A stretch of DNA of 64,000 nt, taken from Alphaproteobacteria bacterium UBA7314. GTDB lineage: Bacteria; Pseudomonadota; Alphaproteobacteria; MPNO01; UBA830. This document shows, one piece after another, positions 1,091 to 54,399 of this stretch. The notes under the pieces are model-generated. The model saw only the letters and a program-made list of their open reading frames with translations. It was not told the DNA's origin and made no database searches. The stretch is from positions 9,813 to 73,812 of the forward strand of contig DKQG01000050.1 in NCBI GenBank assembly GCA_002471575.1, written 5' to 3'. A program made the translations under genes and the position numbers. Every line of letters begins with the position of its first letter. Position 1 is the first letter of the stretch.

Positions 1091-2407
1091 ATGAAAAACG
1101 GCGCACGATTGCCTTTACTACTGCTGCTCAGCTTCGTTACCGCGGTCGCGGGTGTTTCAATCTGGGTCATCCTAAGCAGCCCAGACACCCCGCCGCCCGA
1201 AGTCGCCGTGCCAGCGGAAAAGAAAGCACACAAAAAACAAGCCGTCGACGCAAACACGGCTGTGAAAAAACCGCAACCGCCCGCGTCGGAAATCAAACCG
1301 CCACCCGCTGTAAACGCGCCCGATCCAGAACCGCAGACCGAACTCCACAAAAAACCTGCCGCCGAGACGGCGGATAAGGCACCGGCATCGCCCAACAAAG
1401 CGCCGGCCGAGGTCGCGAAAAAAGAGCCAACCGCCCCTTCGGCCCCCACGCCGTCGCCCAGCAAGCCTGAACCCGGAAAGAACACGCAAAAGACGGCACA
1501 GGAAACCGCGCCGAAATCGATCAACAAACGCCAAGCGAGACCCGATCTGCCGATCATGCCGAAGGCGTTTCTGCGCGTGGTTCCGGACGACCCCCTGCCG
1601 CCGGTGCCCGACAACGGGCTGGTGCAGATGACCGCGATCGGCCCGCTCCCCCGGGTGGGTGACAACGGAAGACGGCCGGTCGACGTGTACGCCAAACCGT
1701 TCAATCGGGCGGAAAAACGACCCCGCATCGGTATCGTCGTCACCGGACTTGGGCTCTCGGATGCTGCTACGGAATCGGCCATCCAAGGCCTCGCAGCAGG
1801 CGTTACGCTTGCTTTCGCCCCCTATTCATCGAAGCTGAACGAATGGATCAGGCTGGCCCGCATGGGCGGGCACGAAGTCCTGATCAATATCCCAATGGAA
1901 CCGGTAAACTATCCAGCTTATGACCCCGGTCCGCAGACCCTGCTGACATCCCTGAACGCCAACGACAATCTCGACAGGTTGTTCTGGGCGTTAAGCCGGG
2001 CGGCGGGCTATGTTGGCGTGGTAGATTTTCTGGGATCGCGTTTCACAGTATCCCGAACACACATGGAACCTGTGCTGAAGGCGCTCAAACAACGTGGCCT
2101 GATGTATCTGGACAGCGGCAGCACGACACGCAGCATTGCGCCCGCCGTCGCACAGCAAATCGGAATGTCTTTCGCCGCATCGGCATTGACGCTAGATGAA
2201 CGGGCATCGCGCAAGGATATCGACCGAAAATTCGGCGAGCTGGAAAAACGCGCCAAGCGGGAAAAACAGGCGATCGGTATCGCGTCGCCCTATCCCGTTA
2301 CGCTGGAGAGGATCGCCAACTGGACGCGCCAGCTCCGCGCGCGGGGATTTGTCCTAGCGCCAGTCTCGGCACTTACCGTGAACACCGCGACGGCAAAGAA
2401 ACCGTGA
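1091..2407 (+). CDS. Divergent polysaccharide deacetylase family protein (YibQ-like) with a signal/TM segment and a long Pro/Ala/Lys-rich linker
   Basis: A GGAG sits 6 nt before the ATG. A hydrophobic N-terminus is followed by about 130 aa of PAK-rich low-complexity sequence. The C-terminal domain RIGIVVTGLGLS..LAFAPYS..HEVLINIPMEP matches the divergent polysaccharide deacetylase fold, which commonly follows ctpA in alphaproteobacteria. Confidence 0.75.
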   Translation: MKNGARLPLLLLLSFVTAVAGVSIWVILSSPDTPPPEVAVPAEKKAHKKQAVDANTAVKKPQPPASEIKPPPAVNAPDPEPQTELHKKPAAETADKAPASPNKAPAEVAKKEPTAPSAPTPSPSKPEPGKNTQKTAQETAPKSINKRQARPDLPIMPKAFLRVVPDDPLPPVPDNGLVQMTAIGPLPRVGDNGRRPVDVYAKPFNRAEKRPRIGIVVTGLGLSDAATESAIQGLAAGVTLAFAPYSSKLNEWIRLARMGGHEVLINIPMEPVNYPAYDPGPQTLLTSLNANDNLDRLFWALSRAAGYVGVVDFLGSRFTVSRTHMEPVLKALKQRGLMYLDSGSTTRSIAPAVAQQIGMSFAASALTLDERASRKDIDRKFGELEKRAKREKQAIGIASPYPVTLERIANWTRQLRARGFVLAPVSALTVNTATAKKP

Positions 2408-29117: not shown

Positions 29118-29495
29118 TCAGCCGAGGGCGATCTTGACGATGGAAAAAATGGAGGCGATGGCAAGCCCAATGGCGGCAAACTTGACTAGCGCAATGGCAG
29201 CGATCTTCAACCACTCAGTATGCACGTAATCTTCGAGGACGACCTGTAGGCCGAGCTGGGCGTGATGAAATACCGCGATTGTCATCAGCACCAGCAGTAC
29301 CGAAACCACAGGCGTCGCGATCCATTCGCGGAACGCTCCGTAGTCGGCGCCGGCCATAGCGGCGATAGAAGCGACAAACCAGATAAGGAGCGGTATCAGC
29401 GCAACCGCAGTCATCCGCTGCGCCCACCAATGGATCACACCCTCCTTAGCAGAGCCTAGCCCGCGGACCTTGCCGAGGGGAGAACGAAGACTCAT
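29118..29495 (-). CDS. sdhD: Succinate dehydrogenase hydrophobic membrane anchor subunit
   Basis: About 125 aa with three TM helices and the conserved HWW near the start (GVIHWWAQR). Its ATG overlaps the sdhC stop in an ATGA arrangement. Confidence 0.8.
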   Translation of the reverse strand: MSLRSPLGKVRGLGSAKEGVIHWWAQRMTAVALIPLLIWFVASIAAMAGADYGAFREWIATPVVSVLLVLMTIAVFHHAQLGLQVVLEDYVHTEWLKIAAIALVKFAAIGLAIASIFSIVKIALG

Positions 29496-29890
29496 CACAA
29501 GGCTCCCATTGAGGCGTAACCCCAGACCCAAGAAAGAACGGTCAGCGCAATGGAGGCGACGACCACCAGCCGGCCGTTGCGATAGGCGGCCTCGAGTCCA
29601 AAACCCTTGCCGGCATCCCAGAATAGGTGACGGATGCCGTTGCACAGGTGATAGAACAGCGCAAAGGACCAGCCGAACAGCAGCAGCTTGCCGATTAAGG
29701 AGGCGTTGAACGCCTGTATGTCACCAAATGTTCTTTCTCCGGTCGCGGCAGCGATAAGCCAGAACACCAGCAGCAACGTCCCCACCGCCAGCGCGATTCC
29801 CGTAGCGCGATGCATGATGGACATGACGGAGGTGAGTTGCGGCTTGTAAACCTGAAGATGCGGGGACAGAGGGCGATTTTGGCTCGCCAT
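29495..29890 (-). CDS. sdhC: Succinate dehydrogenase cytochrome b556 subunit
   Basis: About 131 aa with RPLSPHLQVYKPQLTSVMSIMHRATG, the haem-ligand His, and three TM segments. The start is taken at the Met beginning MASQNRP. Confidence 0.8.
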   Translation of the reverse strand: MASQNRPLSPHLQVYKPQLTSVMSIMHRATGIALAVGTLLLVFWLIAAATGERTFGDIQAFNASLIGKLLLFGWSFALFYHLCNGIRHLFWDAGKGFGLEAAYRNGRLVVVASIALTVLSWVWGYASMGAL

Positions 29891-30749
29891 GGATTGGATC
29901 CTGTTTTCTTGCTCGACAACGCTGAAACGAATGGATTTTCTCAACCGGATCTATTTACGCCGATGGGTGGGTCAAGTCAATCTGAGCCCGGTTTCCCCTG
30001 CGATTCGGGCCGCAAAAAAATGTGCGGTCGACTTTGTGGACAACCTTGTGGACAATTTGTGAACGCGAAATTCGCTTATACACAGGAAATCGTAATATTC
30101 GACGGTTTGAAAGTTGCGTCTGCAAAGTCCCAAAGAGATCATTGTTGCACGCGGGAGCGTAGGAGGAGCCATCGCCAGCCAGGGAATCTTCCCCTCGGGA
30201 AAGGTCACCGGGCGGCATCGGCAAATCGCCGGCAGGCAGTCTGCAGATCCCGGCAACGGTATGTGTAGGTGCTGGTCGGATCGGGCGAGAGTTGGCAGGG
30301 TTCCATCCCATGACCGTCGCCTGCAACCGGTTCTGTCCGTGGAAAGGGACGGATGTTTCGGTGCCGCAACGCCGGTTCAGCCCGGAATAACGGCACGAGG
30401 TTGGCGAGCTAAAGCCGGGGAAACCGGACGGAGATCGCCGCTTGTCAGGATGACGTGCACTCCCCGAAGCGCGCGTCCAATGATCGGAACTTCCGGAAGC
30501 GGAGAGGCAAAATCGGCTGCATCGGCCTCATGTCCCGGAAACGGGGCGGGCCGTGGAGGAAAGTGGTGTATCGCCAAGGGCACCGCCGGACAAAGCGGTT
30601 AGAGACCAGTTCGCTCTCGCGTCCACGAGCCTTAAACGGCTCTTGGGGTGTCGGGCGTGTCTTCGCGGGACACAGAGCGTAGGTTGAAAGACTTACGCGC
30701 CCGGCGCCTCAATTTTCTCACCCAATCGCACATCAGTAGTTCCGGCCAG

Positions 30750-31076
30750 TCATAACGGTTGCTCGAAATTGTGCCCGGATACGCGTTCAAGGACATTCTG
30801 TGTTCCGACGCCTTCTACGATTCGGGTGTGGGGTTGCCGCACCCATTCGTATCCGGGCCCGGATTCGAGAACGCCTCCGAGTTTTGATTCTGGGCCATGA
30901 ACGCCATAGATTTCGACACACCTCGGGACGGCCGCAAGGCGTGCTGAATACTCAACGGAGACTTTGCCGCGCATTTGGTCGAACAGCACAAATTCGGGAC
31001 CAACAACGATTACAGGCGATTTACCAACGGCGGGATCTGGCGCAAACGCATGGATGCCATCCTGTCTTCCATCCAC
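30750..31076 (-). CDS. Hypothetical protein (108 aa), conserved-looking but unassigned
   Basis: An ORF with protein-like composition lies between asd and the sdhC upstream spacer. I recognise no family. Confidence 0.4.
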   Translation of the reverse strand: MDGRQDGIHAFAPDPAVGKSPVIVVGPEFVLFDQMRGKVSVEYSARLAAVPRCVEIYGVHGPESKLGGVLESGPGYEWVRQPHTRIVEGVGTQNVLERVSGHNFEQPL

Positions 31077-31242
31077 ATGAATGGCGACCGGCAGGTGTGC
31101 CGGATAACGGATAGGCCCGCGCTAGAAAGACTGTCCGCTGCCAGCGCTGTCTGGCTGAACACCCCGGCGCCCGATTTGGAAAACATCCGCGAAGAAATCG
31201 GTTGCATTACCGGTCGCGCGGCGTGACCGAAACGCAGCCAGA

Positions 31243-32268
31243 TCAGGCCGCCTTAACCAGCTTCTTTCGAACCAGCATCTCGGCAATCTGTACAGTGTTA
31301 AGCGCCGCGCCCTTACGCAGGTTGTCGGAGACGACCCACATGGACAAACCGTTCTTGACGGTCGGGTCCTTACGGATCCGGCTGACGTAAACCGCGTCCT
31401 CGCCTGCGCACTCCACCGGCGTGACATAGCCTTCGTTGGCCCGGTGATCTACCACTACAACGCCCGGTGCATCGCGCAGTATCTCCCGAGCTTCGTCTTC
31501 GTCGATCGGCTTCGCACATTCGATGTTGACGGCCTCGCCATGGCCAACAAAGACGGGGACCCGCACGCATGTCGCCTGTACGGCGATATCCTTGTCGAGT
31601 ATCTTGCGCGTCTCCACCGTCATCTTCCATTCTTCCTTGGTCGCGCCGTCGTCCATGAAGACGTCGATATGCGGGATCACGTTGAAAGCGATTTGCTTGG
31701 TGAACTGCTCGTGCTCTTTCGAGTCGTTCACGAAAATGCCGCGGGTCTGGTTAAATAGTTCGTCCATTGCCGCCTTGCCGGCGCCGGAGGTCGACTGATA
31801 GGTCGATACCGATACGCGCTTGATTTTCGCTTTATCGTGCAACGGCTTTAACGCAACGACCATTTGGATCGTGGAACAGTTAGGGTTGGCAATGATGTTG
31901 CGCTTGGTGTGCCAGTCGAGATCTTCCGGATTGACCTCCGGTACGACCAACGGCACATCCGGATCCATTCTGAAACAAGACGAATTGTCGATCACGATGC
32001 AACCCGCCTTGGCGGCCCGGGGCGCATGTTTGGCTGACGCCTTGGAGCCAGGCGAAAACAAAGCGATATCGGTATCCGAAAAATTATAATACTCGAGATC
32101 CTGCACCGACAGAATGTCGTCTTCTCCGAACGAGACCTCTCGCCCGACGGAGCGCGACGACGCCAACGCGATCACGTCATCGGCGGGGAAGCTTCTCTCC
32201 GCCAGAATTTCCAGCATCTCGCGGCCGACATTTCCTGTCGCGCCGGCAACGGCAACTTTGTAACCCAT
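31243..32268 (-). CDS. asd: Aspartate-semialdehyde dehydrogenase
   Basis: 341 aa with the Rossmann motif GATGNVGREM and the active-site Cys region NPNCSTIQM. Confidence 0.93.
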   Translation of the reverse strand: MGYKVAVAGATGNVGREMLEILAERSFPADDVIALASSRSVGREVSFGEDDILSVQDLEYYNFSDTDIALFSPGSKASAKHAPRAAKAGCIVIDNSSCFRMDPDVPLVVPEVNPEDLDWHTKRNIIANPNCSTIQMVVALKPLHDKAKIKRVSVSTYQSTSGAGKAAMDELFNQTRGIFVNDSKEHEQFTKQIAFNVIPHIDVFMDDGATKEEWKMTVETRKILDKDIAVQATCVRVPVFVGHGEAVNIECAKPIDEDEAREILRDAPGVVVVDHRANEGYVTPVECAGEDAVYVSRIRKDPTVKNGLSMWVVSDNLRKGAALNTVQIAEMLVRKKLVKAA

Positions 32269-32427: not shown

Positions 32428-32619
32428 TCAGCTCCCCGGTTTGGTTATCTTGACCGTGGTGTTTGCAGTCGGTTTCGTCGTCGCCTTTCCCGTCCCCAAA
32501 GTGATGGTCGGTTTTTCCGTCCGGACGGTCTGCTGGTAGCCGCAGCAGGAATCGCCTTCTTCCGAAAAAGCGGCGGTGGATGCGGTGTACAGACCGGCAA
32601 CGGCCAGAGACATTATCAT
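32428..32619 (-). CDS. Possible small exported protein (63 aa) with a CC pair
   Basis: An N-terminal hydrophobic, signal-like stretch MIMSLAVAGLYTASTAAFS is followed by EEGDSCCGYQQ.. and a Thr/Lys-rich tail. The ribosome-binding site is weak. It sits in a 460-bp spacer between asd and leuB. Confidence 0.25.
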   Translation of the reverse strand: MIMSLAVAGLYTASTAAFSEEGDSCCGYQQTVRTEKPTITLGTGKATTKPTANTTVKITKPGS

Positions 32620-37871: not shown

Positions 37872-38396
37872 TTAGCCCTCCTTATTCTCTTGTTCCTCGG
37901 CAGCAGCCTCTTGAGCGGGTGCTTCCTCAACAGGGGCCTCTTCAGCCGCAGTTTCTTCGGCCGATGCTTCCTCGGCTGGCACTTCTTCTGCAGCAGCTTC
38001 TTCGGCCGGGGCATCGGCTTCTGACGTCGCGGCATCCGCCTCGGCGCCAGCCCTTGCCTTGGCCGCTTCTTCAGCCTCTCTCATGCGTTCAAGCGTCTTG
38101 GGCCGCGGCGCGCTCTGCTTCGGCGTTTCGCGGATTTCTGGCATCGGGATGATCTCGGCCCGGCCAAGGAATTTAGCCACCCGGTCCGATGGCTTGGCAC
38201 CGACACCGAGCCAATGCTTGATGCGCTCGTCGTTTAGCTTGATCCGGTCGGGGTGTTCCTGCGGCAACATCGGGTTATAAGTACCGACACGTTCGATATA
38301 GCGGCCGTCGCGCGGCATGCGCGAATCCGCAACAACGATACGATAGTAGGGACGCTTTTTTGCACCGCCCCGGGATAGTCTAAGTTTAAGCGACAT
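37872..38396 (-). CDS. rpsP: 30S ribosomal protein S16 with an approximately 85-aa Ala/Glu-rich C-terminal extension
   Basis: A canonical S16 N-terminus (MSLKLRLSRGGAKKRPYYRIVVADSRMPRDGRYIERVGTYNP) is followed by AEE/PAEE-type imperfect repeats. I place the start at the Met at 38396. Confidence 0.88.
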   Translation of the reverse strand: MSLKLRLSRGGAKKRPYYRIVVADSRMPRDGRYIERVGTYNPMLPQEHPDRIKLNDERIKHWLGVGAKPSDRVAKFLGRAEIIPMPEIRETPKQSAPRPKTLERMREAEEAAKARAGAEADAATSEADAPAEEAAAEEVPAEEASAEETAAEEAPVEEAPAQEAAAEEQENKEG

Positions 38397-38488
38397 TAGG
38401 TTATTAACCCTCCATTTGATCGCGATTGTTGAAGTGTTTCGAATAAATCGTTGGTTTCGTTCCAGTTCCCTGCAGCTCAGCCGCGTCT

Positions 38489-39865
38489 TCATCTCATGCC
38501 GGGTCCCGGCGGCAAGCCGGGGGGCATTATTCCGGGCATTCCGGACCGCATCAGGCCCTTCTTTCCCATCTTCTTCATCTTTTTCATCATGCGGGTCATT
38601 TCCTGATACTGCTTCAGGAGCTTGTTGACGTCCTGCACGGTGGTGCCCGATCCGGCGGCGATCCGGCGCTTGCGGGATGCCTTGATCACGTCGGGTTTCT
38701 TGCGTTCGGTGACCGTCATCGAGCCGATGATCGCTTCCTGGTGGATGACCGTCTTGTCGTCGACATTGGCCGCCGCCATCTGCGCCTGCGCCTTTTTTAC
38801 GCCGGGCAGCATGCCCATCACGCCACTCAGCCCGCCCATCTTGCGAAGCTGGCGAAGCTGCGAGGCGAAATCATCGAGATCAAAGCTGCCCGCCTCCATC
38901 TTCTTCATCAGCCGTTCGGCTTCGTCCTGCTCAACCAGCTCGGACGCTTTTTCAACCAGGCTGACGACATCGCCCATGCCGAGAATACGCGACGCGATCC
39001 GGTCGGGGTGAAAGGCTTCTAACGCTTCCAGTTTTTCGCCAGTGCCCAGCAGGCGGATCGGCGTGCCGGTAACGGCCTTCATCGACAATGCGGCGCCACC
39101 ACGGGCATCTCCGTCGACACGGGTCAGCACGATACCCGTTAGGTCAAGCTTCTCGTTGAAAGACTCGGCGACGTTCACGGCATCTTGGCCGGTCATGGCA
39201 TCGGCAACCAGTAGGATTTCCGCCGGGCGCGCGCCGTCGCGCACATCCGCGACCTCGGCCATCAGGTCATCGTCGACATGCAGGCGGCCCGCGGTATCTA
39301 GGATGACCACGTCGTAGCCTTCCCTCTTCGCCGTATCCATGGCGCGGTCTGCGATCATGCGCGGCGTCTGGAGCGGCACGATCGGTAGGGTATCCACTTT
39401 GGCCTGTTCGCCGAGCACCGCCAACTGCTGCTGTGCCGCCGGGCGGCGCACGTCGAGCGACGCCATCAGCACCTTCTTAGCCTGCTTTTCTTGGATGCGC
39501 CTGGCGATCTTAGCCGACGACGTCGTCTTACCGGAACCCTGCAGCCCGACCATCATCACGGCTGCGGGCGATGCGGCGCGAACCTCGAAGTCTTCGGTCT
39601 CCGGCCCGAGCATCTCGACCAGGTAGTCGTTGACGATCTTGACGACTTGCTGGCCCGGCGTCACCGAGCGCAGGACTTCCTCGCCGACGGCCCGTTCCTT
39701 TACGCCGTCGACGAAATCCTTGACGACGGGCAGCGCGACATCGGCTTCGAGCAGGGCGACGCGGATTTCGCGCATCGTCGCCGACACGTCGGCCTCGGAC
39801 AGCGCACCGCGCTTCTTCAGCTTGTCGAATATCTCGCCGAAACGATCTGTCAGTCCGTCGAACAT
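38489..39865 (-). CDS. ffh: Signal recognition particle protein Ffh
   Basis: 458 aa with an N domain, a GTPase domain (GLQGSGKTTSSAKIA, DTAGR) and a Met-rich M domain (MMKKMKKMGKKGLMRSGM). Confidence 0.95.
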   Translation of the reverse strand: MFDGLTDRFGEIFDKLKKRGALSEADVSATMREIRVALLEADVALPVVKDFVDGVKERAVGEEVLRSVTPGQQVVKIVNDYLVEMLGPETEDFEVRAASPAAVMMVGLQGSGKTTSSAKIARRIQEKQAKKVLMASLDVRRPAAQQQLAVLGEQAKVDTLPIVPLQTPRMIADRAMDTAKREGYDVVILDTAGRLHVDDDLMAEVADVRDGARPAEILLVADAMTGQDAVNVAESFNEKLDLTGIVLTRVDGDARGGAALSMKAVTGTPIRLLGTGEKLEALEAFHPDRIASRILGMGDVVSLVEKASELVEQDEAERLMKKMEAGSFDLDDFASQLRQLRKMGGLSGVMGMLPGVKKAQAQMAAANVDDKTVIHQEAIIGSMTVTERKKPDVIKASRKRRIAAGSGTTVQDVNKLLKQYQEMTRMMKKMKKMGKKGLMRSGMPGIMPPGLPPGPGMR

Positions 39866-40178
39866 GTGCCCTTGGCACTCCGTTCAGTTACCTCGACCCG
39901 CAATTCCGACTGTCAAAAATTCCCCAACGCAAATCGCGCCAGTGCGCGCACCTGCGCGGACCGACGTTCACCCGAAAGCGTTGGACAATGTCTTTTGTCT
40001 TGGGCGGGGCGGAAATTAGGGGGGTTTGGGGGTGACGTCAAGGATTTAGAGGCATCTGAAGTCCCATTTGACCGTCATCACATAATTGCCTCATTTCTGC
40101 GCTTTAACCGTAACAATTAATTCCCAGTTTAGGGGGTAACTTCACATTACGCAGACGGATGGTACAAGGAATACCGGG

Positions 40179-40370
40179 ATGAAGACCTCGCAAACGACCC
40201 CTAGAGTAGCAGCGGCAATTGCCGGCATGGCGCTGTTTCTGGGCGCTGCCGCAGCTGCGGGTATCGAACGCGGCAAGGACATGGTGGGCTCAGGTGAAGT
40301 GGTGTCCGCGCAGGAAGCTATTTGGGCGCTTGATATCGTGACAACCGTCGGTTCCTCCTACGCCGAGTAG
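40179..40370 (+). CDS. Possible small secreted peptide (63 aa)
   Basis: AAGGAA lies 8 nt upstream of the ATG. A signal-like N-terminus MKTSQTTPRVAAAIAGMALFLGAAAAAG leaves a mature part of about 35 aa (IERGKDMVGSGEVVSAQEAIWALDIVTTVGSSYAE). I recognise no family. It is convergent with the neighbouring amidohydrolase gene. Confidence 0.35.
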   Translation: MKTSQTTPRVAAAIAGMALFLGAAAAAGIERGKDMVGSGEVVSAQEAIWALDIVTTVGSSYAE

Positions 40371-40424
40371 GATAACGCCCGCCTCGGGAATGGACGGAAC
40401 GCCTGCACGCGCTTGGCGCGCAAT

Positions 40425-41495
40425 TCAGTTCAGATTGTAGAAGCTGATCATGTTGTCATGAACCAGCTTGCACTTGATCTCGTTCGAGAACTCGTTGTTT
40501 TCCAGGAACTCGGGCAACTCTGTGGTGAGATCCTCCTCGGTCGGCTCGTGAGGGTAGTCCGACGCGTAGAGGATGCGGTCCGGGCCTATGGCGTCGATGG
40601 TGTATTTTAGGTTCCGCTCGCCGAGCTCCACGGCGACCCAGAAATTGTCCCCTTCGCGCAGATAGTCTGACGGGCGCTTTTTCAGCTTGGCCCGGCTGGC
40701 CGCCCCGAACACGGATTCGTATTCGTAATCCATGCGGTCCATCATGAATGGTACCCAGGTCGCGCCGCCTTCTAGGAAGGCAATCTTCAGCTTGGGGAAA
40801 GCATCCCACATGCCTGAGAACACGATGTCAGTCAGCTGCATCATCAGCGGGAACGGGTGTTCCAGCGTGTGCACCTTCACGAATTCGCGGAAATGGTTGA
40901 AACCCATGCCGCGGCTCGGCCCGCCGTGGATGGCTAGCGGCATGTTGTTCTTTTCCGCCGCCTCGAAGATCGGCCAGAAGAACTCGTCGCCGCAGGTTTT
41001 GCCCAGATAGGTCTGCGACGGCAGCATCATGGCGGGGAAGCGCACGCGCTCGTTGGCGCAGCGCTCGATCTCCTTCGCCGCCTCTTCCGGCACCTGCACC
41101 GGCACGATACCGGCGCCGTAGAGCCGTTCGTCCTTCGACGTGTAGCGGTCTTCCAGCCAGTTGTTGTAGGCCTTGATGGTCTCGACCACCCACTTGGGAT
41201 CCGAGATCAGCCCGGCCGCAAGACCCGCCGTCGGATAAAGCACCGTGCCGTCGGCACCGATTATGTCGAGCATCTCGGCCCACACATCGGCGTCGGTATG
41301 GGTATAGCGTCGGGGTTAGCAGTCGTTGGATGCCATGATGAAGCCGCGCGCCCACCCATCGAGGCTGGGCCAGACCCCAAAGGTCTTGAAGCGCTGCAGA
41401 TTGGCAAAATCGCCCTCAAAATATTCAGCGATCTCTTCATCGTTCTCGAGCACGTGCCCGTCGCCGTCAAAGACGTCGAATCCGTTGATAGCCAT
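40425..41495 (-). pseudogene. Amidohydrolase-2 family (ACMSD-like metal-dependent hydrolase/decarboxylase) gene interrupted by an in-frame TAA
   Basis: The C-terminal 286 codons (40425-41285) carry amidohydrolase-2 motifs (AIHGGP.., ..ILYASDYPHEP). An N-terminal 58-codon segment (41322-41495, MAINGFDVFDGDGHVLE..) is in the same frame. The two are separated by a single TAA at 41316-41318 on the minus strand. Confidence 0.6.
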
Positions 41496-41701
41496 CAGTC
41501 CCTCCCGGTTTTCATCGCGTTCCCTGCCCTAAATTCATGACCTCCACAGGCACCGAGTCAATGACGGTCCGGGAGGGTAAGAGGGCCGACGCCGAGACAA
41601 CGAATGTTCAGGCTTCTCCCCAAACAAGGGAGAAGGCGGATTTGGAAATCGCGTCCGGAAGGATATATGCTCTGGCAACAGTTTGACCGACCGAGGCGGC
41701 C

Positions 41702-42100
41702 ATGACCGAAAACACGCTCGATAATTTCGAAAACGGCGACGAGACCAAGATCAACTACTACCACGCCCATATCTATTACGGCGACGACGACGCTGTGCGC
41801 GAAACTGCGGCGCGACTGCGTGAAAAGGCGTGGAACAAATGGCCCGGCAAGGTGCGCATGGGCCGGTTCCGCGACAAGGCGGTCGGACCGCATCCGCTGG
41901 CCATGTACCAGATCGAGTTCGACCACGAGATCTTCGACGAGATCGTTCCCTGGCTGATGTACAACCGCGACGGCTTGACCATCCTGCTCCATCCCGACGC
42001 CGAAGACGCCTGGCGCGATCACGCCTGGTACCCGTTCTGGATGGGCGAAAAGCTGGACCTACGACTGAACTGGCTGGCGGCGGGCAACCGACAGGCTTAG
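41702..42100 (+). CDS. DOPA 4,5-dioxygenase-family protein (small aromatic ring-cleavage dioxygenase-like)
   Basis: 132 aa with the motif YHAHIYYGDDD..., which is characteristic of the approximately 110-130-aa DOPA-dioxygenase family. Confidence 0.6.
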   Translation: MTENTLDNFENGDETKINYYHAHIYYGDDDAVRETAARLREKAWNKWPGKVRMGRFRDKAVGPHPLAMYQIEFDHEIFDEIVPWLMYNRDGLTILLHPDAEDAWRDHAWYPFWMGEKLDLRLNWLAAGNRQA

Positions 42101-43338
42101 GGCGTATACCGCCTGAGCCGCTTCCAGATCAGCCACGCGGCGAGGCCGAGTACGACTTGCATGCCGATAACAGGGTACAGCGTTCCGTCATAGATCAGTC
42201 CCTGGGCAAGCGATACGGCAGCGGCCGCGCACATCTGCACGAAGCCGAGTACCGCCGCCGCCGCGCCCGCGGCTTTGGGGTGGGACATCATCACGCCTGC
42301 CGCCGTGTTAGGGGCCAGAAACCCGCCGCCGAACCAGAATACAAACTGGAGCGCGACGATAAGCGCGACTGGCAGCCACCCCGCCAGAGCCAGTCCGGTC
42401 AGCACGAGGGGCGGAAAAAACATTAGCGCGAGACTGACATGGATAACCTTCGCCGAGCCCCAGCGGGGAATCGCCGAGCGTGCGGCGAACGATCCTGTCA
42501 GAAAGCCCGACATGGCGAGGGCGGCGATTACGCCGTAGACGGAAGGCATCGTGCCCAGACTTTCGATGAAGTAGTACGGCCCGCCGGCGACGAAGCAATA
42601 GAGCCCCGCATAGCCGATCGAGTGGGTTAGCATGAAAGCGAGAAAGCCCTTGTGCCGGAACAGGCCCAGATAGACGATATGGACCTTCTGTGCTTCCGAC
42701 GCGGGGGCAACGGTACCGGTTTCGGGCAGGACGAAGAGTGTCGAGACGAGCCAGATCAGCGCGGCGGCACCGGCAAAAACGAACCCGGCGCGCCAGCTGG
42801 CAACGTCGATGAGCGCACCGCCGACCAGGGGAGCAGCCAGAAAAGAGGCGGCCATCAGAGCGAACAGCGCTGCCATGGCTTTCGGCGCGCCGTCCGCGCC
42901 GTAGATATCCCGAACGATGGCCCGCGACACGACGTACCCCGAAGCGCCGCCCAGCCCTTGGATGGCACGGCCCAGAACGATCACCCAGATACTGTCCGCC
43001 ATGGCAGCGATTGCCGACCCGGCCAAAGTGAGGACCGCCCCGATCAGCAGCGCGGTCCGGCGGCCGCGGCGGTCGGAGAACGGACCAAAGAACAACTGGC
43101 CCGACGCAAACATCACGGCAAAGGAAACAATGGTGAGCTGGATGGTCACGGGCGACCGCTGAAAAACGTCGCCCAGGGCCGGCATGGCGGGCACGATCAG
43201 CCCGGTCGCGACTTCTCCGAAAGACGTACAAAGAACCAGCGTCGCGAAAACCAGAACGCCGGCGCCCTCACGAGGGCGGGACACGAACTGGTTTTCGGAT
43301 TCTCGGGTCATGATGGGCAACCGATCCCGGAACCGCAT
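42097..43338 (-). CDS. MFS transporter (Bcr/CflA-like drug:H+ antiporter family)
   Basis: About 410 aa with 12 predicted TM segments and the MFS motif GPFSDRRGRRTALL after TM2. The start is ambiguous between 43338 and 43311. Confidence 0.85.
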   Translation of the reverse strand: MRFRDRLPIMTRESENQFVSRPREGAGVLVFATLVLCTSFGEVATGLIVPAMPALGDVFQRSPVTIQLTIVSFAVMFASGQLFFGPFSDRRGRRTALLIGAVLTLAGSAIAAMADSIWVIVLGRAIQGLGGASGYVVSRAIVRDIYGADGAPKAMAALFALMAASFLAAPLVGGALIDVASWRAGFVFAGAAALIWLVSTLFVLPETGTVAPASEAQKVHIVYLGLFRHKGFLAFMLTHSIGYAGLYCFVAGGPYYFIESLGTMPSVYGVIAALAMSGFLTGSFAARSAIPRWGSAKVIHVSLALMFFPPLVLTGLALAGWLPVALIVALQFVFWFGGGFLAPNTAAGVMMSHPKAAGAAAAVLGFVQMCAAAAVSLAQGLIYDGTLYPVIGMQVVLGLAAWLIWKRLRRYTP

Positions 43339-43349
43339 TCTCCCAACAT

Positions 43350-44288
43350 CTAGTCCTCAAGCCCCACCAGCGAGCGCGCAAAGGCATCAGCTTCGAACGG
43401 ACGCAGGTCGTCTTCGCCCTCGCCGACGCCGACGGCGTGCACCGGCAGACCGAACTTTTCCGCCAGCGCGACCAGTACGCCGCCGCGCGCCGAGCCGTCC
43501 AGTTTGGTCACCACCAGTCCGGTGACGCTGCACATGCTCTGGAAGGTTTCGACCTGGGAATGGGCGTTCTGACCGGTGGTGGCATCCAACACCAGCAGCG
43601 TGTCGTGCGGCGCGGTTTTGTCCTGCTTCGAGATAACCCGCACGACCTTTTGCAATTGCTGCATCAGGTCGTCACGGTTCTGCAGGCGGCCGGCGGTATC
43701 GATCAGCAACACGTCGATGTCGTCCGCCCGGGCGCGGTCGATGGCTTCGAACGCAAGGCTGGCGGCATCGGCGCCCTGCTCGCTTGCCACCACGGGGCAC
43801 CCCGTCCGTTCGCCCCAGATCTTGAGCTGTTCAATGGCTGCTGCGCGGAACGTGTCACCCGCCGCCAGCATCACGGACTTCCCGTCCTCCCTCAGGCGTT
43901 TGGCGAGCTTGCCGATGGTCGTCGTCTTGCCAGACCCGTTGACCCCGGTGACGAGGATGACATGTGGGCGATGAACGGCATTGGCGGCCAGCGGCCTGGC
44001 GACCGGTTCTAGGATGGCGGACACTTCGTCCGCGAGCGCAGTGCGAATTTCGTCTGCCGAGACTTCCTTGTCGAACCGGGTACCGGCCAGCGATGCCGAT
44101 AGTTTGGCTGCCGTCTCCACGCCCAGATCGGACGTGATCAAAAGGTCTTCGAGCTCTTCCAGCGCGGCATCGTCCAGCTTTCGGCCGGAAAAGATGCCAA
44201 CGATGCCGTCGGACAGGCGGGACGAAGATCGGCTGAGTCCGGCGCGAAGGCGTGCAAGCCAACCCTTTTTCTCGCTCTCTTCGCTCAT
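43350..44288 (-). CDS. ftsY: Signal recognition particle receptor FtsY (short form, NG domain)
   Basis: 312 aa with GTPase motifs GVNGSGKTTTIGKLA and DTAGRLQN. Confidence 0.93.
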   Translation of the reverse strand: MSEESEKKGWLARLRAGLSRSSSRLSDGIVGIFSGRKLDDAALEELEDLLITSDLGVETAAKLSASLAGTRFDKEVSADEIRTALADEVSAILEPVARPLAANAVHRPHVILVTGVNGSGKTTTIGKLAKRLREDGKSVMLAAGDTFRAAAIEQLKIWGERTGCPVVASEQGADAASLAFEAIDRARADDIDVLLIDTAGRLQNRDDLMQQLQKVVRVISKQDKTAPHDTLLVLDATTGQNAHSQVETFQSMCSVTGLVVTKLDGSARGGVLVALAEKFGLPVHAVGVGEGEDDLRPFEADAFARSLVGLED

Positions 44289-45535
44289 GCGGCTTTTCGC
44301 GCGATCAGCGTGTCGTTGTCACGGGCGACGATGCGGGCGGGCACGATAACGCCATCCGCCGCTGCGCCGTCGATGCGGACATTGGCGAACTGAGGCGTCC
44401 GACCGGCCGCGTCCTTTTCGACCAGCACGTCGGCGACGGAGCCGATCTGCGCATCGAGGAACCGCTGTACCTGCGCCGCTCCCGCCGCGCGCAGTTCGGC
44501 GGCGCGGGCCTTACGTATGTCACCGGGCAGTTGCGGCATCTTCGCCGCGGGCGTGCCGGAGCGCTCGGAATAGGGAAATACGTGCAGCCACGTCAGCCCG
44601 CACCGCTCGACCAGCGAAACGGAATTTGCGAACGCGTCGTCGGTTTCGGTCGGGAAGCCGGCGATGATATCGGCGCCGAACGCGGCGTCGGGGCGCAGAG
44701 CCCGGACACGGTCGACGAAACGTTCGATATCGGCACGACAGTGGCGGCGTTTCATGCGTTTCAGGATCAGGTCGTCGCCCGACTGCACACTGATATGGAA
44801 ATGCGGCATCAGACGCGGTTCGTCCGCGATCAGGCCGAACAGCGTGTCGTCAATTTCCGCCGGATCGACCGAGCTGAGCCGCAGCCGCGGCAGATCGGAC
44901 ACCAACGCCAGCAGGCGTTTGATCATGTCGCCGAGCCGCGGCCTACCGGGCAGGTCCAGTCCGTAGTCAGTGATGTCGACGCCGGTCAGCACAATTTCGC
45001 GGTAGCCCTGATCGACCAGGGTACGGACCTGGTCGACGATCACGCCGATGGGGACCGAACGGTTATTTCCGCGGCCGAACGGGATGATGCAGAACGTGCA
45101 ACGGTGATCGCAGCCCTGCTGGATCTCGACGAAGACCCGGGCGCGGCCCTCGAAACCGGAAATCAGGTGCGGTGCGGTTTCGCGAACGGTCATGATGTCG
45201 TTGACCGACACGCGGGGGGTATCGCCGAGCCCGGACCATGTGTCGGCACGCAGCTTTTCCTCGTTACCGATCACGCGATCGACTTCTTCCATGGCGGCGT
45301 ACTTGTCCGGGTCGATCTGCGCAGCACAGCCGGTGACGATGATCCGGGCGTCGGGGTTTTCGCGCCGGGCGCGGCGGATGGACTGGCGCACCTGGCGTTC
45401 GGCCTCTGCCGTGACGGCGCAGGAATTTACGATAACCGCGTCTTCCAGTCCGGTGGCGGCGGCATGGCCGCGCATGACCTCGGATTCAAAGGCATTGAGC
45501 CGGCAGCCGAATGTCAGGATGTCTGTCGCGCTCAT
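44285..45535 (-). CDS. mtaB: Radical-SAM methylthiotransferase, MiaB-like (MtaB)
   Basis: 416 aa with an N-terminal MTTase domain ([11 protein letters not shown]), the radical-SAM CxxxCxxC box ([11 protein letters not shown]) and a C-terminal TRAM-like domain. It sits between dapF and ftsY, the usual alphaproteobacterial context. Confidence 0.85.
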
Positions 45536-46392
45536 CCGAGCAGGCTTTCGTCGATCGTTCCGGAGAAGCTGGTGGCCCCCGGACCGGTCATGAACACACG
45601 GCCCGGTTCGCCGGGTCGGTCCTCGCGCCAGTCGATCAGCAGTTCGCCTCCGTCGACAACGACCACCATGCGCCGGCCGGCCAGGTTGCGGCGGTTGGCA
45701 TTGACCACGGCAGCGCAGGCGCCGGTCCCGCAGGCCGAGGTCAGCCCGACGCCGCGCTCCCAGACGCGAAGTCGCATGCGATCCGGTGCCAGGATCTGGG
45801 CGACGCCGATATTGGCCCGTTCCGGAAAGACCGGATGGACTTCCAGTTCCGGGCCGACCAGAGCGATAGGTATGGAATCGACATCGTCGACGAAAAAAGT
45901 TGCATGCGGGTTGCCCATGCTGACCGCCGCCGGGTCGTCCAACGGTCCGCAGGCAAGATCGAGATGAAGCGTGTCGGCTTCCGCCACCAGCGGAATCTGG
46001 TCCCAGTCGCCGCGCGGAATACCCATGTCGACCGACACCAGCCCGTAACCCGCGCGTTTCACCGTCAGCAGGTCGGCGCCGGTGCGGACCCTTACCGCGT
46101 CGCCGTCGACTTCGTCCAGAAGTACGGCGCCGATGCAGCGCGTGGCATTGCCGCAGGCATCGACCTCGCCCCCGTCGGCGTTGCGGATGCGCATGAAGGC
46201 GTGGGAGTCGCCGTCGGGCGCGTCCTCGATGATGATGAACTGGTCGCAGCCGACGCCGGTACGGCGGTCGGCGATCGCCGCCGCCTGGGCAGCCGAAATC
46301 GCCGCGCCGGCGGCGGGTTTCCCGCCACGCGCGTCAATCACCACGAAATCGTTGCCGAGCCCGTGCATTTTCGTAAACGGCAGTTCGGTCAT
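45532..46392 (-). CDS. dapF: Diaminopimelate epimerase
   Basis: 286 aa beginning [23 protein letters not shown], with the two catalytic Cys regions ([16 protein letters not shown]; ACGTGACAA). Confidence 0.93.
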
Positions 46393-53794: not shown

Positions 53795-53799
53795 TCCGG

Positions 53800-54399
53800 C
53801 TATTTCCACAGGATCGTGCGGGCAAAATCCTTCGCCAATGTGTTCATGCTTTGCCGTTCCGCCAAACAGACGTTGAACCGGGATAAGATATCGACCGCGA
53901 CTTTCTTGTTTTCCTTGTTTCGCCACCAGACATCTTCCATCGCATAGTTCAGGCTGCCGAAGACGCTTTTATCCAGCGGTGCCACGAAATCGGGACAATC
54001 ATCAGGCCGCCTAGTGACTATCGCCCTGTAGGAGATGGACGAAAATCTCGAGGTCTCTTAGGTCGAGGCAAGAATCGGCGTAGGATCTTCGAGCACCGAT
54101 AACGCCCCCTGCTTTATTCGCGGCGCAGGTTGGGGATCCGCCCAGAAATCGAAGATGCCTACATAGACGCAGAACGCGACATCCAGCACAAGCCGATCCG
54201 CGAGCATGCCCCACGATTCGGGATACTTCGACGTAATGAAATTGGTCACTTGGCTAGCCAGTTCGAACAGCTTGTGCAGACGCGCCGCAAGAGCCCGGCG
54301 TGGTTCGGTACGCCGAGAACCAGGTACCCGCCCGGCTCTGTGCCGGGAGCGATATCGGGCTTTTACGATGAGGGCCGGGCCGATTACAGTCTGCGCTGG
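53800..54399 (-). pseudogene. Gene remnant of unknown family with one in-frame TAA
   Basis: About 200 codons of continuous minus-strand frame run from the epimerase stop down to 53800. They are interrupted only by a TAA at 54058-54060. The flanking segments (..FITSKYPESWGMLADRLVLDVAFCVYVGIFDFW.. and ..FGSLNYAMEDVWWRNKENKKVAVDILSRFNVCLAER..) look protein-like, but no ATG start is present. Confidence 0.3.

Follow-up and report, generated by a model that had tools for sequence, protein, structure and literature searches.

A probable free-standing structured RNA gene of about 570 nt located head-to-head with sdhCDAB in marine Alphaproteobacteria

The region upstream of the succinate dehydrogenase operon sdhCDAB was analyzed in a stretch of 64,000 nt from contig DKQG01000050.1 of Alphaproteobacteria bacterium UBA7314. 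The whole stretch is called the window below, and positions refer to it. The gene sdhC is encoded on the minus strand, it has its ATG at 29890 and extends to 29498. The gene asd (31243-32268, minus strand), which was named from its Pfam semialdehyde dehydrogenase domains, has the same orientation. Because a crude map of open reading frames (ORFs) yielded no convincing gene between the two, the real gap is 1352 bp (29891-31242). It is the longest one in the window without a convincing gene, and 43 of the 59 gaps on this map are not longer than 150 bp. An earlier note, which was made from the sequence without database searches, had described 29945-30749 as an unusually long spacer without recognizable function, and the gap lengths as well as the absence of family matches bear this out. 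The note had also stated that the GC content resembles that of coding DNA. This is true for 30100-30700 (0.61-0.635, compared to 0.60 for the whole window), but not for 29900-30200, where it falls to 0.47-0.51; this part contains promoter-like motifs and an array of DnaA-box-like 9-mers. The remainder very probably harbors, at 30149-30719 on the plus strand, a free-standing gene for a structured non-coding RNA (ncRNA) of about 570 nt, which would act through its compact fold and not as a leader or a long antisense RNA.

The sequence of this element and its multi-helix fold are conserved on the plus strand in a clade of marine Alphaproteobacteria, and the element encodes no protein. A scan of species-representative genomes for SdhC gave 80 loci, most of them in metagenome-assembled genomes (MAGs) of marine Alphaproteobacteria. 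In the closest locus, L001, SdhC is 85% identical and the spacer is 77% identical over 29899-30718. The following part, 30719-31242, has no counterpart in L001, and asd comes about 140 bp past the conserved block there. The full-length element was detected by a profile search with nhmmer in L001, L002, L003, L005, L009 and L029. A pattern scan of metagenomes led to seven further contigs, one of which (L085) is identical to the window, and three more variants were found on contigs that were identified via spurious ORF calls. Altogether, this amounts to 13 distinct sequences, from MAGs and metagenomes of marine Alphaproteobacteria; their pairwise identities go down to 44%, and their GC contents range from 47% to 70%. 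In every metagenome contig that reaches the flank, sdhC is adjoining and divergent. One member, L054 (2621-3001, minus strand), is a natural mini variant in which about 250 central nucleotides are absent, i.e., most of helix P2 and then P3 to P7 of the fold described below. It retains P1, P9 to P12 and the terminator; the contig is short, and a misassembly is possible.

The close relatives L004 and L006-L008 do not contain the RNA. In L004 (2827-3028) only a fragment of the 3' hairpin is left beside the sdhC promoter, which suggests that the RNA was lost there. In L011 (1674-1871, minus strand) the 3' core is matched weakly and at the correct place (E about 1e-3), and a covariance model of the 3' core (R1) revealed no new members in 83 sources beyond this weak match. 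What L075 (2760-3700, minus strand) has in common with the window is limited to P12, the terminator and the DnaA boxes. Otherwise, its spacer consists of about 900 nt of different GC-rich sequence, with a series of repeated GUCCUUCGGGAC hairpins or perhaps an ORF rich in Pro and Gly. Searches of phages, plasmids and viral contigs yielded no copies of the element.

The earlier note had called the spacer free of ORFs. Mechanical ORFs of up to 162 amino acids (aa) do exist, but none of them is gene-like or conserved. The longest one in 29945-30749 is located at 30114-30602 on the plus strand. The GC content of the spacer ORFs is flat over the three codon positions, 0.61/0.67/0.58 versus about 0.65/0.43/0.74 in real genes, and none of the ORFs had a match in Pfam or NCBIfam. 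A comparison of the 162-aa ORF with 5.8 billion proteins retrieved only four nameless ORFs, all called on the same RNA locus; gene callers put spurious "hypothetical proteins" on it. The indels between the spacers of the window and L001 are 2, 2 and 5 nt long, i.e., not multiples of three. Homologues with 47-50% GC have stops in every frame, and their longest stop-free runs comprise 59-95 codons. No ORF is common to the homologues. Because of the conservation, the indels, the stops and the absence of a shared ORF, a protein gene as well as a decaying pseudogene are excluded for this block. An eroded pseudogene filling 29945-30749 had been one of the explanations offered by the earlier note, and the long ORFs and a true pseudogene next door (30756-31187) are in its favor. 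Against it stand the lack of Pfam and NCBIfam matches, homologues that consist only of ORFs on the same locus, the frame-breaking indels and the stops in all frames of the low-GC homologues. In addition, purifying selection extends down to 44% identity and is accompanied by base-pair covariation instead of codon periodicity. The probability of a pseudogene within the block is thus close to nil, and the remnant of a gene that does exist lies beside it.

The element does not belong to a known RNA family either. A comparison of 29400-31600 with Rfam 15 (cmscan, E up to 10), a check that the earlier note had proposed, gave only a chance match to mir-3151, with 19 bits versus a gathering threshold of 83. 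At the gathering threshold there was no match in the whole window; ROOL, GOLLD, OLE, raiA, HEARO, IMES and RNase P were among the models, which also included tmRNA, 6S, SRP and riboswitches. ARAGORN detected no tRNA or tmRNA.

The predicted fold of the plus strand is organized by a long-range helix of 11 bp, P1, which encloses about ten hairpins. The 5' strand of P1, ACGCGGGAGCG (ACGCGRGAGCG, 30149-30159), pairs with the 3' strand CGCUCUCGCGU (30612-30622). The helix is 95.5% paired in ten sequences, two of its pairs are changed on both sides (G-C in L003, U-A in L029), and it recurs in independent minimum free energy (MFE) folds of the window and of L029. Next to its 5' strand is P2 (30163-30227), a long hairpin with the apex CCCCUCGGG. 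A hairpin is present at this place in nine of ten folded homologues, with differing sequences; only its start is retained in L054, and L002 has an insertion of 38 nt at the tip. P3 (30229-30279) is again a long hairpin, it is capped by a G[GCAA]C tetraloop, and 10 of its 14 pairs are compensatory. P4 (30282-30323) has the conserved apex GGUUCCAU, 5 of 10 pairs are compensatory, and G-U pairs are conserved. P5 (30333-30352), with the sequence CUGUCCGU-GGAAAG-GGACGG, is 94% paired, and a U-G pair is kept in seven of nine sequences. The next two hairpins, P6 (30361-30396) and P7 (30402-30440, with a G[GAAA]C cap), have 9 of 12 and 5 of 8 compensatory pairs, respectively.

P9 (30441-30487) carries the nearly invariant apex GCACUCCCCGAAGCGYGC, and 6 of its 15 pairs are compensatory. 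P10 (30532-30547), GUCCCG[GAAA]CGGGGC, is 100% paired, and four of the six pairs are changed on both sides; for example, one pair is C-G in five sequences and U-A in five. P11 (30548-30611) is an extended hairpin that includes the joint to the 3' strand of P1 (7 of 15 pairs compensatory). Its apex GUGUAUCGCCAAGGGCAC (30566-30586) is nearly invariant and the outer stem is wholly different from lineage to lineage, i.e., CCUGCGCAG/CUGCGCAGG in L005 and GGAUAUGG/CCAUGUCC in L009. Past P1 follows P12 (30627-30642), a small hairpin (GAGCC-UUAAAC-GGCUC) that was found in the folds of homologues and in the block alignment. G[GNRA]C tetraloops cap three of the helices, P3, P7 and P10. The inverted repeats at 30170-30260 and 30380-30470, which the earlier note had pointed out, correspond to P2 and P3 and to P6, P7 and P9, respectively. 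A kissing interaction between the loops of P9 (CUCCCC) and P11 (AAGGG) was considered and rejected, since the sole supporting change, in L054, can equally be explained as a local U-A pair in the apex of P11.

The covariation was also quantified for the element as a whole. With seven sequences, RNAalifold predicted 149 pairs on the plus strand, 60 of which were compensatory. With ten sequences 83 pairs were predicted; 90.8% of the cells were canonical, and 35 pairs were changed on both sides. None of 500 shuffles matched these values, and when the partners were slid by one to three columns only 36-46% remained paired. The compensatory counts per helix given above were obtained after each block had been re-aligned separately, because MAFFT misaligns the variable hairpins; for the 3' hairpin, 10 of 27 pairs were compensatory after this re-alignment. 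Folding block by block revealed the same series of hairpins in each homologue, with L054 lacking the central blocks. The alignment of the spacer across relatives, which had likewise been proposed in the earlier note, shows covariation and not rapid decay. Of the candidate explanations in that note, an unrecognized structured RNA is the one that is upheld, by the conservation, the covariation, the strand asymmetry and the lack of an Rfam match.

The strand asymmetry was apparent in several ways. The alifold energy was -217 kcal/mol for the plus strand versus -168 kcal/mol for the minus strand. The MFE z-scores against dinucleotide shuffles were -4.09 (plus) and -2.11 (minus) for the window, and -5.77 (plus) and -2.30 (minus) for L029. 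The consensus pairs included 110 G-U cells versus 24 A-C cells, a count that is somewhat biased, as the structure was predicted on the plus strand. On the minus strand an A-run lies before the end hairpin, at the asd-side end of the element. Because of the strand energies, the z-scores, the G-U excess and the end hairpin, the RNA reads away from sdhC toward the asd end; its orientation is divergent relative to sdhC and convergent relative to asd.

This direction bears on a further explanation raised in the earlier note, namely a long structured 5' leader or sRNA that controls the sdh operon. A leader or riboswitch of sdhCDAB would be transcribed on the minus strand, and its promoter would lie far from sdhC, immediately past the end of asd. 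It would account for the element always adjoining sdhC, and the minus strand also folds somewhat better than shuffles (z-scores of -2.1 and -2.3). But the conserved structure is found on the strand that does not encode sdhC, the G-U and A-C counts and the alifold energy favor the plus strand, and the position of the A-run makes the end hairpin a terminator of the plus strand. Moreover, sdhC has a promoter-like motif of its own on the sdhC-proximal side of the element, about 90 nt from the ATG (TTGACT-N17-TAAAC), which is present with or without the RNA, and relatives with a similar SdhC have no element. A leader is therefore very improbable. In the window, the motif (29980-29952, minus strand) consists of the -35 element TTGACT (29980-29975), a 17-nt spacer and the -10-like element TAAATA (29957-29952), and it is invariant in an alignment of eight loci. 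Its general form, TTGAC[TAC]-N16-18-[TC]AAA[CT]N, occurs 82-146 nt (mostly about 90 nt) before the ATG of sdhC in at least 34 of 79 loci, irrespective of the presence of the RNA. Because of this conservation, sdhC seems to be served by a proximal promoter and to possess a leader of about 55 nt, and transcription would start near the motif. A consensus scanner did not call this motif.

The ends of the RNA were deduced from conserved signals. The candidate promoter (30114-30142, plus strand) consists of the -35-like TTGCGT (30114-30119), a 17-nt spacer and the -10-like GATCAT (30137-30142), and it ends 6 nt before P1. In alignments of 10-13 sequences TTGC is invariant, GATCAT is nearly so, and the spacing is 17-18 nt; TTGCGT-N17-GATCAT, with TTGCNN as the general form, has a fixed spacing in 12 of the 13 sequences. 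Only three of six positions in the first hexamer and four of six in the second match the sigma-70 consensus. The RNA would be transcribed from this putative sigma-70-like promoter of its own, with a start near 30149. An alternative reading of GGTTTGAAAGTTGC as a sigma-54 promoter (GG-N10-GC) was rejected, because L001, L002, L005 and L029 do not share the -24 GG. At the other end (30645-30719, plus strand) there is a long GC hairpin (30645-30710) with AAUUUUCUC behind it, a probable intrinsic terminator. It has 16-27 consensus pairs, 6-10 of which are changed on both sides, and its U-G pairs are fixed on the plus strand. The hairpin is branched in the GC-rich members, and U-rich tails follow it in homologues. 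The transcript would thus end at this hairpin and the U-tract, facing the 3' end of asd.

Beyond the RNA the neighboring gene varies, while the sdhC side is constant in all loci that reach it. In most loci the far gene is asd in convergent orientation. In L003, a gene of the MbnB/TglH/ChrH family (match to PF05114 at 2.7e-24) and a gene for a 254-aa partner protein are located downstream on the strand of the RNA, and in L087 a pdxK-like kinase gene is found in this position, also on the RNA's strand. The window itself contains a pseudogene (30756-31187, plus strand), a remnant of the partner gene of L003: tblastn aligned 176 residues to the 254-aa protein in a single frame, with 36% identity and three in-frame stops. 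The first stretch of this alignment overlaps the RNA terminator and is probably spurious, the real homology begins near 30756. Because this plus-strand pseudogene underlies it, the "hypothetical gene" that the earlier note had placed at 30750-31076 on the minus strand is not a gene, but an antisense shadow ORF; its GC content at third codon positions is 0.51.

These neighbors raise the question of whether the element is a cis-acting leader or attenuator of a plus-strand operon of the MbnB/TglH/ChrH type, as found in L003, and a relic where the operon was lost; the 3' hairpin would then be a terminator under regulation. The order of genes in L003, the remaining partner pseudogene in the window and the same-strand kinase gene in L087 fit this explanation. 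Yet L003 and L087 have different genes downstream, and about 570 nt far exceeds the length of known leaders. Furthermore, in at least 8 of the 13 sequences (window, L001, L002, L005, L029, L009, L086 and L054) asd is convergent and nothing is located downstream, and the RNA is still highly conserved; L088-L090 are short contigs that do not reach the far flank. Overall, an attenuator is improbable.

Between the promoter-like motif of sdhC and the RNA lies an array of DnaA-box-like 9-mers (TTATNCACA; 30035-30084, both strands), which is conserved position by position in eight loci. It comprises two TTGTCCACA boxes on the minus strand (30035-30043 and 30047-30055), a weak third box (30058-30066) and the inverted box TTATACACA on the plus strand (30076-30084). 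The starts of the three direct boxes are spaced by 11-12 bp. The 64 kb contain 11 boxes with no more than one mismatch, and three of them crowd into these 50 bp. In the 300 nt upstream of sdhC, such boxes are about 8-fold enriched over the 79 loci (4.18 versus 0.53 per kb), and an arrangement of one inverted box and one to three direct boxes recurs there, also in loci without the RNA. DnaA may bind this array, and the conserved arrangement suggests DnaA-dependent control of sdhCDAB. Clusters of DnaA boxes outside oriC occur at DnaA-regulated promoters and at loci of the datA/DARS type. The array resembles them in having three to four 9-mers that match TTATNCACA, with the direct ones 11-12 bp apart and one inverted; in contrast, no description of such a cluster between sdhC and an ncRNA gene was found in the searchable literature.

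A replication origin was considered and rejected for the boxes. The GC skew is negative on both sides of 30 kb and does not switch, and no origin-type genes are located nearby; for these reasons the boxes are interpreted as a site of regulation by DnaA instead of oriC. Separately, the fall of the cumulative GC skew ends near 40-44 kb (region of about 38000-46000), and the gene orientation flips near 44.2 kb. Within 38000-46000 there is neither a cluster of DnaA boxes nor an origin-type gene; ffh, ftsY and genes for an MFS transporter, an amidohydrolase and a molybdenum hydroxylase are present, and the skew change is probably an effect of gene orientation. The adjoining box array could also mean that the 570-nt element acts at the level of DNA, as a replication origin or as a DnaA-related site with repeats that can form a cruciform. 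Apart from the missing skew switch at 30 kb and the missing origin-linked genes, the asymmetry of G-U and A-C cells would be unexpected for a DNA duplex, and the boxes are also found upstream of sdhC in loci that do not have the element. A DNA element is extremely improbable.

The free-standing RNA would act by its three-dimensional fold and not by extended antisense pairing, because it has a closing helix, GNRA tetraloops and invariant apical loops. GNRA tetraloops are typical elements of tertiary contacts. Antisense pairing to the sdhC leader was tried as an alternative and rejected: in a crude test with RNAduplex on ten species, pairing of the RNA with the leader was not above that of shuffled controls, and no common or conserved site emerged. 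The RNA may serve as a scaffold or as a partner for a protein or ligand, by analogy to OLE, ROOL, GOLLD and raiA. Its expression and that of sdhCDAB would depend on a common divergent control region of about 250 bp with the conserved DnaA-box array. The constant head-to-head pairing with sdhCDAB, together with the DnaA-box region, suggests that the RNA is co-regulated with respiratory complex II.

Several points weigh against a free-standing RNA that acts through its fold. Its transcription, start and terminator were all deduced from the sequence, and a consensus promoter/terminator scanner called neither the promoter nor the terminator. The terminator was not called because its loop exceeds the limit of the scanner (loops of 3-8 nt) and because of its short run of U residues, which in the window is UUUU. 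As there were no calls, the assignments of both promoter and terminator are based on conservation. The structure was predicted on the same alignments that were used for the covariation counts, and MAFFT does not align the variable hairpins reliably. The sequences are few (10-13), phylogenetically clustered and from a narrow clade. As the RNA is missing from L004 and L006-L008, it is dispensable in some lineages. Lastly, action through the fold is argued by analogy.

RNAs of several known systems were compared with the element. The sucA, sucA-II and sucC RNA motifs are short coding-strand leaders near genes of the tricarboxylic acid (TCA) cycle. They are similar in that a conserved RNA structure lies beside TCA-cycle genes, but the RNA described here has about 570 nt, is on the opposite strand and has an apparent promoter and terminator of its own. 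RyhB, Spot 42, RybB and SdhX are Hfq-dependent antisense RNAs of 50-250 nt, which regulate sdhCDAB in enterobacteria and are encoded elsewhere. In common with them, the RNA is linked genetically to succinate dehydrogenase; in contrast to them, RNAduplex pairing to the sdhC leader does not exceed that of shuffles. The closest resemblance is to the large "ornate" bacterial ncRNAs, i.e., ROOL (about 580 nt), GOLLD, OLE and raiA (reviewed in PMC12286853 and PMC12968392). Like these, the RNA is stand-alone, is of a similar size class (about 570 nt), has a long-range helix around its many helices, contains several GNRA tetraloops and invariant apices, is GC-rich and occupies a long intergenic region without ORFs. 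Unlike these, it has no Rfam covariance match even at E up to 10, its synteny with sdhC is fixed, and its hosts are marine Alphaproteobacteria instead of Firmicutes, lactobacilli or phages, with no phage or plasmid copy. As none of their models match, the likeness is an analogy and not a membership.

A few further observations were made in the window. The gap of 479 bp between asd and leuB contains a small conserved ORF of 63-65 aa, absent from the earlier description, with an N-terminus resembling a signal peptide (32428-32619, minus strand; in L001 at 1647-1844, plus strand). Neither a long ORF nor an Rfam match is present in two other gaps, 39866-40424 (559 bp) and 53795-54399 (605 bp).

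In the searchable literature, the coverage of which is incomplete, an earlier description of the RNA was not found, nor was one found in surveys of GC-rich intergenic regions. Long (above about 500 nt), intricately folded and conserved ncRNAs are rare in bacteria, and earlier examples, i.e., RNase P, OLE, GOLLD, ROOL and raiA, proved to be biochemically unusual: catalytic, membrane-associated or cage-forming. With its clear boundaries and about 12 helices supported by covariation, the candidate, which stems from uncultured bacteria, can be used for structure probing, cryo-electron microscopy and mapping of metatranscriptomes, and the mini variant L054 would mark a dispensable central domain. 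The fixed head-to-head layout with sdhCDAB and the DnaA-box array, which is kept beyond the distribution of the RNA, are footholds for its function; the array suggests that in this group the expression of complex II is connected to the replication initiator, a description of which was not found. That the RNA represents an undescribed class of large RNAs, which rivals ROOL or OLE in size and ornateness, is specific for a clade of marine Alphaproteobacteria and is hard-wired to sdh via the DnaA-box region, is a tentative proposal to which slightly less than even weight is given. If it is true, the RNA would function biochemically, be it as scaffold, sensor or catalyst, and this role would be tied to respiration or the control of the TCA cycle, and possibly to the replication initiator.

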